Shown here in pieces: positions 29,189 to 36,278 of a DNA stretch of 64,000 nucleotides. Below the pieces are notes generated by a model. That model made no database searches. It was not told the origin of the DNA and was given only the letters and a program-made list of their open reading frames with translations. Position numbers and translations under genes: made by a program. This DNA is from an uncultured delta proteobacterium (lineage in GTDB: Bacteria > Myxococcota_A > UBA9160 > SMWR01): positions 1,167,923 to 1,231,922 of the forward strand of contig CAWAXD010000014.1 in the NCBI GenBank assembly GCA_963785985.1, written 5' to 3'. The first letter of the stretch is position 1; every line of letters starts with the position of its first letter.

Positions 29189-30371
29189 ATGCATCTCGAG
29201 TTCACGCCCGAGCAGCAGCGGCTGCGCCAGGAGATCCGCGGCTACTACCGCGAGCTCTTCACGCCCGAGCTGCGCGCGGCCCTCGATGCCGAGTGGGAAG
29301 AGATGGGCGGACCCGTCTTCCGCGAAGTGGTCGGGCGGATGGGCAAGGACGGCTGGCTGGGGATCGGCTGGCCGCGCGAGCACGGCGGCCAGGGCCGCAC
29401 GGCGATCGAGCAGTTCATCTTCTGGGACGAGACCTATCGCGCGCGCGCGCCGCTCCCGGTCATCGCCGTCAACACGATCGGACCGACGCTGATGCAATAC
29501 GGAACGCCGCAGCAGAAGGCGGAGCTGCTGCCCGGCATCGTGAAGGGCGAGCTGTTCTTCGGCGTGGGCTACACCGAGCCCGGCGCGGGCACCGATCTCG
29601 CCTCGCTCACGACGCGCGCCGTGCGCGACGGCGACGAGTACGTGATCAACGGGCAGAAGAGCTACACCACCCACGCCCACGACGCCGACTGGATCTGGCT
29701 CGCGGCGCGCACCGATCCCGACGCGCCGAAGCACAAGGGCATCTCGATCATCCTGGTGCCGACGAGCGCGCAGGGCTTCTCCTTCACGCCGATCCACACG
29801 CTCGGCGGTGAGCGCACGAACGTCACCTATTACTCGAACGTGCGCGTGCCGGTCACGAACCGCGTCGGGCCCGAGAACCAGGGCTGGTCGCTGATCACCT
29901 CGCAGCTCAACCACGAGCGCATCACGCTCGCCTCGCCGGGCTGCGCCGACGCGCTGCTCGATCGCGTCTGGGACTGGGCCGGCGAAGGTCGCCGCGCCCG
30001 AGGGCGGCCGCATGCTCGATCAGCCCTGGGTGCAGCTCAACCTCGCGCGCGCCTACGCCAAGCTCGACGCGCTCAAGGTGCTGAACTGGCGCTCGGCATG
30101 GTCGATCACGGCGGGCGTGCCCAACATGGCCGAGGCGTCGGCCGTGAAGGTGCTGGGCACGGAGCTATGCATCGAGGTCTATCGCCTGCTGCTCGAGATC
30201 GTCGAGGCCTCGGGCCTCGTGCTGCTCGGCGAGCCCGGCATGCTGTTCGGCGGAGTCCTCGAGAACGCCTACCGCAGCGCCACCACGCTCACCTTCGGGG
30301 GCGGCGTGAACGAGGTGCAGCGTGACATCATCGCCATGGCCGGCCTGGGTCTGCCCCGGGCGCGGCGCTAA
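29189..30371 (+). pseudogene. acyl-CoA dehydrogenase (FadE/ChsE-like), one frame break as assembled
   Basis: MHLEFTPEQQRLRQEIRGYY...GWLGIGWPREHGG...GVGYTEPGAGTDLASL...INGQKSYTTHAH (ORF 29189..30325), then MLDQPWVQLNLARAY...FGGGVNEVQRDIIAMAGLGLP (ORF 30012..30371). The break is near 29977. Confidence 0.85.
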
Positions 30372-30385
30372 CGCGTGAGGCCAGC

Positions 30386-31353
30386 ATGAGCACGAAGGAA
30401 GCTCTCGAGAAGCAGCTCGAGAGCGTACGTGGGAATCGAGCAGGGACCCGTCGAGATCGCGCAGGACCCCGTGAACGAGGCCGATGATCCGTCACTGGTG
30501 CGAGGCGATGGGAGACCGCAACCCCGCCTATCTCGATCCCGAGGCCGCGAAGCGCAGCGTGCACGGAGGCATCGTCGCGCCGCCCGTGATGCTGCAGGCC
30601 TGGATCCTCGGCGGCCTCGAGATGGCGGACACCTCCGCCGGCCCGAAGAACGAGCAGCAGGTGCTCCACAAGCTGCTCAGCGAGCATGGCTACACGTCGG
30701 TCGTCGCGACCAACACGGACCAGGAATACACGCGCTATCTGCGCCCCGGCGATCGCGTCACGGCGACGACCATGATCGAGTCGATCTCCGAGGAGAAGAC
30801 GACCGGTCTCGGCATCGGCTACTTCATCGAGACGCGCATCGACTTCACGGACCAGCACGACGCGCGCGTCGGCTCGATCTCCTTCCGCGTGCTCAAGTTC
30901 AAGCCCGCGCAGCAGGCGCAGCCGGTCGCGGCGGCCGCGGGCGGCGCCCCGGCGAAGCCGCGGCGCCTGCGCGCGCCGCGCGCGCACGACAACGGCTGGT
31001 GGTGGGAAGGCGTCGATCGCGGCGAGCTGCTGATCCAGAAGTGCAGCGAGTGCGGAACGCTGCGCCATCCGCCGCGCCCGATGTGCGGGAGCTGCCAATC
31101 CACGCAGTGGACCGGCATCGCCTCGAGGGGCGCGGAACGGTGTATAGCTACGTGGTGCTGCGCCACCCCCCGATCCCCGGCTACGACTATCCCGCTGCCG
31201 GTGGCGGTGATCGACCTCGAAGAAGGCACCCGCATCGTCTCGAACGTCGTCGGCTGCAAGCCGGAAGACGTCTACATCGGCATGAAGGTCCAGCTCTCGA
31301 TCGAGAACGTGGACGAAGAGCTGAAGCTGCCGCTGTTCCGGCCGGCGGCCTGA
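30386..31353 (+). pseudogene. MaoC-N hot-dog domain fused to a DUF35 Zn-ribbon/OB-fold domain (ChsH2-like), 4 frame breaks as assembled
   Basis: MSTKEALEKQLES / YVGIEQGPVEIAQDPVNEA / MIRHWCEAMGDRNPAYLDPE... lie in three successive frames (breaks near 30427 and 30483). The DUF35 part is DNGWWWEGVDRGELLIQKCSECGTLRHPPRPMCGSCQS, with a compensated -1/+1 pair (near 31126 and 31194) around GRGTVYSYVVLRHPPIPGYDYP. Confidence 0.7.
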
Positions 31354-31357
31354 CGCG

Positions 31358-34110: not shown

Positions 34111-34155
34111 CACCACCGGGCGCCGCGCGCGGCGCCTGCAAGGAGAAGAGTCCAG

Positions 34156-35339
34156 ATGCGTGAAGCCGTCATCGTCGAAGCGCTGCGCACCCCGATCGCG
34201 CGCGGCAAGGCGGATCAAGGGATCGCTCTCCGCGTTCCACCCCGCCCACCTGCTCGGCCAAGGTGCAGGACGCGGTGGTCACGCGGGCCGGCATCGACCC
34301 CGCGGAGGTCGAGCAGATCATCGGCGGCTGCGTCACCCAGGCGGGCGAGCAGGTCGAGCAACGTCGCGCGCAACGCCTGGCTCTCGCGCGGCAAGGGCTG
34401 GCACACGGCGCGGCACCACGGTCGACACGCAGTGCGGCTCGGGCCAGCAGGCCAACCACCTGATCTCCGCGCTCGTGCAAGGTCGGCAGCATCGACGTCG
34501 GCATCGCCTGCGGCGTCGAGGTGATGAGCCACGTGGGGCTCGGCGCGAACGTGATCAACGGCCCGGGCTTCTTCGAGCCCGCCGACTGGCCGTGGGACTC
34601 GACGCCCGATCAGTTCCGCTCGGCCGAGCGGATCGCCAAGAACCGCGGCATCACCCGCGAGGACGTCGACGCTTCGCGCTCGGCTCGCAGCAGAAAGCCA
34701 AGCAGCGCGCGCGACGAGGGCCGCTTCAAGCAGCGAGATCCTGCCGATCGACGCCCCCGTGCTCGGCGACGACGGCAAGCCGACCGGCCAGCACGCAGCT
34801 CGTCGAAGCAGGACCAGGGCATCCGCGAGACGACGCTCGAGGCGCTCGCGCAGCTCAAGCCCGTCGTCGAAGGCGGCATCCACACGGCCGGCAACTCGTC
34901 GCAGATCTCCGACGGGGCCGCGGCGATCCTGTGGATGACGGCGGAGAAGGCGCGCGCCCTCGGCCTGCGCCCGCGCGCGCGCATCGTGCACGACGTCGTC
35001 GTCGGCACCGACCCCTACTACCTGCTCGACGGGCCGATCGATGCCACGCAGGCCATCCTCGAGAAGACCGGCATGAAGCTCTCGGACATCGACCTGTTCG
35101 AGATCAACGAGGCCTTCGCGGCGGTCGTGCTCTCGTGGGCGAAGGTCTGCCAGCCGGACATGGACCGCGTCAACGTGAACGGCGGCGCAATCGCGCTCGG
35201 CCACCCGGTCGGCGCGACCGGCACGCGGCTGATCGTCACGGCGCTGCACGAGCTCGAGCGCCGCGGCCTCGGCACCGCCTTCATCACCATGTGCTGCGGC
35301 GCCTCGGTCGGCACCGGCACCATCATCGAGCGCCTGTAG
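34156..35339 (+). pseudogene. acetyl-CoA C-acyltransferase (thiolase II), about 10 frame breaks in the first 660 nt
   Basis: [66 protein letters not shown] and [11 protein letters not shown] change frame repeatedly. From about 34820 the reading is intact to the end ([15 protein letters not shown]...[20 protein letters not shown]...[16 protein letters not shown]). Confidence 0.85.
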
Positions 35340-35355
35340 GCCCAGGGAGGACGTG

Positions 35356-36278
35356 ATGCTCGGCAATCTCGAAGGCAAGGTCGCGATCGTCACGGGCGCC
35401 GCGCACGGGCTCGGCCGCGTCGAGGCGCTCGACGCTCGCGAGCCAGGGCGCGCGCGTCGTCGTCAACGATCTCGGGACGCGCGGCGACGGTCGCGGCCGC
35501 GACGAGATCGGCGGCGCGCGCGGTGGTGGAGGAGATCCGCAAGCAGGGCGGCGAGGCCGTGCCGCACTTCGGCGACGTCGCCGATTGGAACGATTCGCAA
35601 GCCATGATCAAGACCGCGCTCGATACCTGGGGCGATCTCCACATCCTCGTCAACAACGCGGGCTTCCTGCGCGATTCGACGATCTTCAACATGACCGAGG
35701 AAGACTTCGATGCCGTGATCCGCGTCCACTTGAAGGGCCACTTCTGCGGCATGCGCTTCGCGACCGCCTACTGGCGCGACAAGGCCAAGGCCTCGGGCGG
35801 GACGGTCTATGGACGCCTGATCAACACCAGCTCCGAGGCGTTCATCTTCGGCTCGGTGGGCCAGCCGAACTATGCGGCGGCGAAGGCGGGCATCGTGGCG
35901 ATGACGATGTCGGCCGCGCAGGCGCTGCTGAAGTACGGCGTCACGGCGAACGCGATCATGCCGCGCGCGCGCACCCGCATGAACGAGGGCGGCCCGCTGG
36001 CGGCGATGTTCGCGAAGCCCGCCGACGGCTTCGACGTGTTCGCACCCGAGAACGTCGCGCCGCTGGTCGGCTACCTGGCGTCGCCGGAGGCGCAGCGCAT
36101 CTCGGGCCACGTGCTGATCATCTGGAACAAGGACGTGACGGTGCTCGGGCGCCCCAGCACGAGCACGAAGTTCTCGAGCCCCGAGCGCTGGACCGTCGCG
36201 AGCCTGCACCAATCGCTGGCGCCGCACTTCGAGAAGCTCGAGCCGGTGAAGGACGGCTTCACGGTGCCGCCAGCCTGA
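35356..36278 (+). pseudogene. short-chain dehydrogenase/reductase (SDR), 2 frame breaks near the 5' end
   Basis: MLGNLEGKVAIVTGAAHGLGR (Rossmann TGxxxGxG), then TLASQGARVVVNDLG, then the intact ORF 35523..36278 (NNAGF...SSEAFIFGSVGQPNYAAAKAGIV). Breaks are near 35432 and 35503. Confidence 0.8.

Follow-up and report, generated by a model that had tools for sequence, protein, structure and literature searches.

A seven-gene operon resembling steroid side-chain degradation genes in an uncultured delta proteobacterium

A stretch of 64,000 nt from contig CAWAXD010000014.1 of an uncultured delta proteobacterium (assembly GCA_963785985.1), called the window below and used for all position numbers, carries at 29189-36278 on the plus strand seven consecutive genes that are predicted to serve acyl-CoA side-chain degradation. 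We consider it rather probable from sequence comparisons that these genes form a self-contained operon, which shortens and removes an alkanoyl-CoA side chain from a bulky alicyclic compound, with a sterol or steroid as the most probable case. A first-pass annotation, made from the letters alone, had already read the region as an igr/Chs-like operon for a steroid or similar side chain, and the corrected proteins bear this out, as they match Chs and Ltp2 enzymes and not the proteins of generic beta-oxidation. All seven products, the last two by way of intact orthologues, find their best match among solved structures in a characterised enzyme of steroid side-chain degradation, far ahead of generic homologues.

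Reconstruction of the operon

The window has a G+C content of about 71%, and raw lists of open reading frames (ORFs) are swamped by spurious frames. A frame plot of the G+C content at third codon positions (GC3) revealed unbroken coding on the plus strand between 29.1 and 37.7 kb, in which the frame changes abruptly at many points within presumed single genes. The genes were reconstructed using a frameshift-tolerant Viterbi caller based on codon usage together with protein-guided tblastn, and the exact starts were set from the sequence and one intact relative. In this way seven genes were rebuilt, and the Pfam E-values of all products are far beyond chance. Gene order, strand, sizes and outer coordinates agree with the initial annotation according to Pfam and protein-guided mapping. 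Its reservation that the frames have to be corrected was justified, since none of the seven genes is present as one uninterrupted ORF. Paralogues of the seven genes were not found elsewhere in the window.

Acyl-CoA dehydrogenases and hydratase

The first gene (29189-30371, 393 aa; Pfam Acyl-CoA_dh_N/M/1) encodes an acyl-CoA dehydrogenase (ACAD) alpha subunit similar to ChsE4 and Tcur3483, which is predicted to be catalytic, and the third gene (31358 to about 32491, about 375 aa) encodes a beta subunit similar to ChsE5 and Tcur3481, predicted to be without the catalytic base. Structure matches refer here and below to searches against all PDB sequences, and curated models to the NCBIfam cut-offs. 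The alpha subunit matched ChsE4 of Mycobacterium tuberculosis (4X28_A, 2e-139, 54% identity) and Tcur3483 of Thermomonospora curvata (6WY8_B, 1e-127), and the beta subunit matched Tcur3481 (6WY8_A, 1e-84) and ChsE5 (4X28_D, 1e-57). In the ACAD alignment the motif LNHER of the alpha subunit keeps a Glu in line with E247 of ChsE4, which we take to be the catalytic base. The beta subunit has Ala in this column, like the T. curvata beta subunit Tcur3481, and it also shares with Tcur3481 a Gln at the position that was matched by eye to the MCAD-type base. A Glu in only one of the two subunits is the signature of the alpha2beta2 steroid ACADs, and the suggested check for one ACAD without catalytic Glu thus gave a positive answer. 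The first annotation had likened the pair to ChsE1-ChsE2 of the igr locus. Of this claim the heteromeric steroid ACAD is supported; the nearest relatives among the solved structures, a set without ChsE1-ChsE2, are ChsE4-ChsE5 and Tcur3483/Tcur3481.

Between both ACAD genes lies a gene for a ChsH2-like protein (30386-31353, 320 aa), in which an N-terminal MaoC-like hot-dog domain is fused to DUF35 with zinc ribbon and OB fold (Pfam FAS1_DH_region/MaoC-N, zf-ChsH2, OB_ChsH2_C). The fused protein matched the N-terminal domain of ChsH2 (4W78/4WNB, 3e-33) and the DUF35 domain of ChsH2 (6OK1_B, 4e-29). The fourth gene (32488-32909, about 138 aa), whose start overlaps with the stop of the ACAD beta gene (ATGA) after removal of an inserted base, encodes a small MaoC protein similar to ChsH1 (4WNB_B/4W78_B, 2e-24), predicted to be the catalytic hydratase subunit. 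ChsH2 and ChsH1 are the top matches of the two hydratase genes, as was proposed. The motif RDFxxVHHD of the small protein keeps the Asp and the His at the positions of D29 and H34 of M. tuberculosis ChsH1, and the arrangement of a small hot-dog subunit with both residues and a larger MaoC-N subunit, encoded by two genes, is that of a heteromeric hydratase. The zinc ribbon of DUF35 (CSEC-x10-CGSC) is of the C4 type, which has been described for ChsH2 of T. curvata, whereas Shy has a C3H1 zinc finger (PMC12329534).

An Ltp2-like aldolase with an altered motif

The fifth gene (32928-34110, 390 aa; Pfam Thiolase_C_1) encodes a protein with SCPx-thiolase fold that is predicted to be an Ltp2-like retro-aldolase. 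Its match to Ltp2 of T. curvata (6OK1_A) reached 1e-160, compared to 6e-43 for the next thiolase-like chain, in line with the original comparison with Ltp2, and 8e-35 for Sal (9MYR_A). The protein also passes the NCBIfam model PRK07855 for lipid-transfer proteins (606 versus a cut-off of 469). The H/YGGGAA segment, taken as the counterpart of the thiolase nucleophile, contains no Cys in the window protein and its relatives.

In Ltp2 of T. curvata the motif YDHF supplies the base (Tyr294) and the oxyanion-hole residue (His296), and Tyr344 is the acid, whereas Sal has YDCY and Gln (PMC12329534). The window protein and all of the 75 full-length clade members have YDAF at this place. The Tyr of YDAF aligns with Tyr294 and the Tyr of a SEAYIHG motif with Tyr344, and both are kept in 72-75 members of the clade. 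As replacement of His296 costs the T. curvata enzyme only about 14-fold in catalytic efficiency (PMC12329534), aldolase activity of the YDAF proteins seems plausible. In a neighbour-joining tree, which was rooted with the neighbouring SCPx thiolases (27% identical), the T. curvata protein is sister to the whole clade, and it shares 57-67% identity with its members. The partner DUF35 domain with its C4 zinc ribbon is encoded on chsH2 of the same operon. Because YDAF occurs together with the second Tyr and the finger is of the C4 type, the sequences indicate that the window aldolase is Ltp2-like and not Sal-like, and that it belongs to a distinct subfamily without the motif His.

Thiolase and dehydrogenase

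The last two genes encode a FadA5-type steroid 3-ketoacyl-CoA thiolase (34156-35339, about 391 aa; Pfam Thiolase_N and Thiolase_C) and a short-chain dehydrogenase/reductase (SDR; 35356-36278, about 306 aa; Pfam adh_short) of the MFE-2/ChsB1(Hsd4A) type, predicted to act as (3R)-hydroxyacyl-CoA dehydrogenase. Despite its N-terminally truncated reconstruction, the window thiolase passes the equivalog model NF005889 "steroid 3-ketoacyl-CoA thiolase" with 564 bits versus 515. For the PDB comparisons of both proteins we used the intact orthologues from a related locus (L001), whose thiolase is 92% identical to that of the window. This thiolase matched FadA5 (4UBV) with 4e-147 and 494 bits, followed by the next structure with 257 bits (3e-75). 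The SDR orthologue matched the (3R)-hydroxyacyl-CoA dehydrogenase of MFE-2 (2ET6, 1e-82) and 7LG9 (5e-70), which was deposited as "3-ketoacyl-ACP reductase" and which we take to be ChsB1 of M. tuberculosis; the window SDR itself stays slightly under the NCBIfam cut-offs of PRK07792 and PRK07791.

ACAD, MaoC, DUF35 and SCPx-thiolase domains are also known from benzylsuccinate, pimelate and other pathways, and a cluster for generic beta-oxidation of fatty acids or aromatic side chains could look igr-like by its domain content only. This would fit to the best NCBIfam match of the ACAD alpha subunit, pimC_large, although its 207 bits are far under the cut-off of 624. The score gaps point in the other direction throughout: the alpha subunit reaches 469 bits with ChsE4 and about 135 bits with the nearest ACADs outside the ChsE4/Tcur3483 pair, the aldolase matches BbsB with 2e-27 only, generic thiolases score at most 257 bits, and the Ltp2-like protein shares only 27% identity with the SCPx thiolases that adjoin related operons. 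A generic cluster is therefore effectively refuted, and we see next to no chance for it.

Predicted reaction sequence

Gene content, orthology-level similarity, catalytic residues, operon conservation and purifying selection are shown by the sequences, and from the kinship with enzymes of mycobacteria and T. curvata we infer the substrate, the protein complexes and the order of the reactions. An alpha2beta2 ACAD, with the first dehydrogenase as catalytic and the second as non-catalytic subunit, would introduce an alpha,beta double bond, which would be hydrated by the heteromer of ChsH1 and the MaoC domain of ChsH2. A turn of beta-oxidation at a hydrogen-bearing beta-carbon would be finished by the (3R)-hydroxyacyl-CoA dehydrogenase together with the FadA5-type thiolase. 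Hydration of the last C3 unit would lead to a tertiary C17 alcohol, which is not oxidisable, and the Ltp2-like protein bound to the DUF35 domain of ChsH2 would then catalyse the retro-aldol cleavage to a 17-ketosteroid and propionyl-CoA. All parts of the igr list that had been recognised at the outset are indeed there, but the operon exceeds igr by the FadA5-type thiolase and the ChsB1/Hsd4A-type dehydrogenase. Given the presence of these two enzymes, the operon appears to encode most of a whole side-chain beta-oxidation set, beyond the last step alone.

Distribution and gene neighborhood

The N-terminal half of the Ltp-type protein was used to scan one genome for each GTDB species. This gave 474 relatives, and the locus comparisons cover the best 80 of these. 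Nearly all of the 80 are uncultured metagenome-assembled genomes (MAGs) labelled Myxococcota, "Deltaproteobacteria" or Ca. Binatia, with 72-91% amino-acid identity, which confirms the non-actinobacterial context noticed from the start. About 40 of the 80 loci share the gene order ACAD-ChsH2-ACAD-ChsH1-Ltp2-thiolase-SDR; in variant loci the ACADs are missing, or the ACADs and the thiolase are placed upstream.

Beyond the operon the flanks are poorly conserved. For their survey we considered 422 ORFs within 10 kb of the 80 loci and counted the 25 commonest families per batch. AMP-binding CoA ligases account for at least 26 of these ORFs and luciferase-like (LLM) oxidoreductases, the most consistent non-operon neighbour after the ligases, for 24 including one in the window. 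Molybdopterin oxidoreductases (13) and enoyl-CoA hydratases (at least nine) follow, and extra pairs of SCPx thiolase and DUF35, P450s and sulfatases also recur. In five to six loci the operon is accompanied by a P450 of the CYP125 family, which is missing in the window. The P450 of one such locus (L051:17529-18824) has the reconstructed CYP125 ancestor 8VXI as best match (516 bits), with about 335-345 bits for CYP124 and CYP125. The molybdenum enzyme, found at L059:1625-4474 and in 12 other ORFs that flank the operon at a distance of up to 10 kb in several MAGs of Binatia and Myxococcota, matches 2IVF_A with 687 bits. It carries a twin-arginine translocation signal and belongs to the alpha subunits of the ethylbenzene-dehydrogenase family (type II dimethyl sulfoxide reductase). 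Oxygen-independent steroid C25 hydroxylases/dehydrogenases belong to the same family of molybdenum enzymes.

The substrate of the operon

A steroid as substrate is well supported by homology but unproven, because ring-opening genes were neither seen in the window nor found as recurrent families within 10 kb of the 80 loci. In detail, the following points weigh against a steroid. The 64-kb window showed no genes of the KstD, KshA, Hsa, Ipd or Mce type, and the same is true for the Rieske and extradiol-dioxygenase families; kstD, kshAB, hsaABCD and ipd would mark the complete 9,10-seco route of steroid catabolism. KstD, KshA, Hsa, Ipd and Mce are also not among the recurrent families within 10 kb of the 80 loci, where single occurrences could be missed, and neither Rieske nor extradiol-dioxygenase nor Mce families recur in these flanks. 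The oxyanion-hole His of YDHF is replaced by Ala across the whole clade. Finally, the host phyla are not known as steroid degraders, and a search of the literature library found no report of steroid catabolism for Myxococcota, Myxococcales or Binatota.

The same enzymology could act on a non-steroid substrate, such as another bulky polycyclic or branched lipid (for example a hopanoid or other triterpenoid) or an alkyl-substituted alicyclic acid, and the YDAF aldolase would then suit another side-chain geometry. The missing linkage to ring-opening genes, in the window as well as among the recurrent flank families, would be expected in this case, and the recurrent molybdenum hydroxylases of the ethylbenzene-dehydrogenase family and LLM oxidoreductases are outside the canonical aerobic steroid pathway. 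The molybdenum neighbour is also compatible with sterols, however, given its family kinship with the anaerobic steroid C25 dehydrogenases. Moreover, the thiolase passes the FadA5 equivalog cut-off and a CYP125-family P450 accompanies some of the operons, both of which argue for a steroid. In favour of another substrate, the clade-wide exchange of His to Ala affects the position at which Sal has its catalytic Cys and which is tied to side-chain length specificity (PMC12329534). On the other side, the identity to steroid-specific enzymes is 54-65% across phyla and comparable to the 61-64% between the Comamonas and actinobacterial Ltp2 proteins. We hold a non-steroid substrate to be rather unlikely and favour a sterol or steroid.

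Comparison with known systems

One of the closest systems is that of T. curvata (6WY8, 6OK1), whose structures rank first or nearly first for ACAD alpha, ACAD beta, Ltp2 and DUF35. It shares with the operon the alpha2beta2 logic with Glu in the alpha subunit only, the C4 zinc ribbon and both catalytic Tyr residues. The ACAD tags Tcur3483 and Tcur3481 are two apart, which, judged from the names only, fits to one intervening gene as in the operon described here. T. curvata belongs to another phylum and has YDHF where the window has YDAF, and compared to the T. curvata set the operon has in addition the FadA5-type thiolase and the ChsB1-type SDR.

The igr locus of M. tuberculosis (cyp125-chsE1-chsE2-chsH2-chsH1-ltp2) has the heteromeric ACAD, ChsH1-ChsH2 with DUF35 and Ltp2 in common with the operon, which also contains homologues of M. 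tuberculosis FadA5 and ChsB1. In contrast to igr, the chsH2 gene sits between the two ACAD genes, and cyp125, found beside some related operons, does not occur in the window. In M. tuberculosis fadA5, chsB1 and chsE4-E5 lie at separate loci, whereas all counterparts are combined in one operon here. Unlike in M. tuberculosis, the operon is not surrounded by a cholesterol regulon or by ring-degradation genes.

In Comamonas testosteroni TA441, ORF40-44 encode ChsH2, ChsE1, ChsH1, Ltp2 and ChsE2, which were genetically shown to remove the C17 propionyl unit, and the identity of its Ltp2 to the actinobacterial enzymes (PMC12502768, Table 2) is at a similar level as that of the window protein. Therefore, igr-like operons work outside Actinobacteria (PMC12502768). 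The TA441 cluster is part of a 120-kb steroid mega-cluster with ring-degradation genes, while the operon described here stands alone. The Shy-Sal system differs by YDCY with Gln and a C3H1 finger from the YDAF with Tyr and the C4 finger of the window. Thus, the enzymology is known, and the host lineages, the consolidation of seven genes in one operon and the altered aldolase motif are new; the function is strongly suggested by the similarities described above.

Origin of the broken reading frames

In two syntenic relatives (L001 and L003) with about 85% DNA identity to the window the ORFs of the operon are intact. A three-way DNA alignment revealed about 32 frame-breaking indels that are private to the window (30421-35506), 27 of which are single-base insertions outside homopolymers. 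A further frame change near 29981 in the ACAD alpha gene gives about 33 in total. The ChsH2-like gene carries about four of them, the ChsH1-like gene at least five, the Ltp2-like gene eight, the thiolase gene about ten and the SDR gene two.

A number of about 33 such indels within 7 kb, which by far exceeds their density in most of the window, could indicate a decaying pseudogene cluster with real frameshifts and a lost pathway. Natural decay is expected to favour deletions, however, and the events are strongly biased to +1 insertions. After alignment-guided correction no in-frame stop remains, and dN/dS between the window and the relatives is 0.06-0.3, in the same range as for the L001-L003 pair with the exception of ChsH1 (up to 0.41), so that purifying selection is evident. 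GC3 stays at 0.85-0.98. Furthermore, unrelated neighbours 6-10 kb away are also frame-broken, namely a CobW gene at about 19930-19960 and an aldehyde dehydrogenase gene at about 22790, 23278 and 23331. The indel burst spans 19900-35510 and peaks over the operon, and hardly any such events occur elsewhere in the window. The LLM gene and the genes beyond 36.3 kb have clean frames. As the relatives are intact, the corrected frames are free of stops, dN/dS is low, unrelated neighbours are affected and the indels are mostly insertions outside homopolymers, we conclude that this 16-kb stretch probably contains insertion-type consensus errors of the assembly and that the operon is intact in the organism. 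A decayed cluster is very improbable. The region looks like a locally unpolished or strain-mixed part of a long-read assembly. Homopolymer-type sequencing errors were considered as source of the indels and discarded, since the contexts are not homopolymers, and decay specific to the operon was dismissed because neighbouring genes are affected as well. As the window shows, a complete operon can escape ORF-based annotation where insertion errors cluster locally.

Possible role in uncultured Myxococcota and Binatia

It is conceivable, and we propose this only tentatively and with considerable doubt, that the operon represents a large undescribed clade of YDAF Ltp2-type operons, which would be native to uncultured Myxococcota and Ca. 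Binatia and would provide a stand-alone sterol side-chain cleavage. At least 474 species-representative genomes encode a relative of the Ltp-type query. Steroid catabolism in bacteria is usually ascribed to Actinobacteria and some Proteobacteria. A conserved and compact set of near-orthologues of ChsE, ChsH1/H2, Ltp2, FadA5 and ChsB1, spread over hundreds of uncultured genomes of Myxococcota and Binatia, would extend the range of sterol-processing organisms in soils, sediments and sponges. If this is true, the operon could serve the catabolism of prey or environmental sterols, and some lineages may feed it by oxygen-independent molybdenum hydroxylases of the ethylbenzene-dehydrogenase family. 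Alternatively, own sterols could be converted to C19-type steroids without ring degradation. Lineages of Myxococcota and Binatia have been reported or predicted as sterol makers (PMC12004948, PMC9531527), and this opens the question of a turnover or remodelling of self-made sterols in such bacteria. The natural exchange of His to Ala would be a third active-site configuration beside YDHF with Tyr in Ltp2 and YDCY with Gln in Sal, and the YDAF variant may be relevant for engineering side-chain cleavage in the production of steroid synthons.

Neighboring genes and other features of the window

Upstream of the operon, at 25414-26466 on the minus strand, lies the LLM oxidoreductase gene of the window (Pfam Bac_luciferase, 3e-54), which is 86% identical to the neighbour of the L001 operon and a possible accessory of the operon. 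An aldehyde dehydrogenase is encoded at 22398-23870 on the minus strand (Pfam Aldedh, 1e-180), whose three frame changes were mapped with the orthologue of another related locus (L043). This gene adjoins the operon in a few related loci and its link to the operon is uncertain. In the 1.2 kb upstream of the operon no regulator was found; this stretch is the 5' part of a divergent gene for a large secreted protein with Gly/Ala/Ser repeats (about 26492-28930, minus strand) without Pfam match, in a region that is variable between the relatives. A scan for promoters and terminators from 28.0 to 37.8 kb gave no sites, and tRNAs were not found in the window.

Downstream, a PEMT/ICMT-like membrane protein and a secreted protein of 224 aa are encoded at 36298-37659. 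Both sequences are identical on a short-read Logan contig of 3965 nt (run ERR12037368), whose start lies about 70 nt ahead of the PEMT gene, at the end of the operon.

At 2989-6466 on the plus strand two similar membrane sensor histidine kinases with the same domain order are encoded in tandem, and the frameshift-tolerant caller merged them into one product of 1157 aa. A low-GC island extends from 43800 to 55500 (0.59-0.65 versus 0.71) and was probably acquired horizontally. It contains a gene for a Tc-toxin-like protein of 2359 aa (47818-54897, minus strand) with SpvB, TcdB_mid, FG-GAP and RHS repeats, which is adjoined by an IS30-like (45527-46696) and an IS3-like (44630-45442) transposase gene, both on the minus strand.

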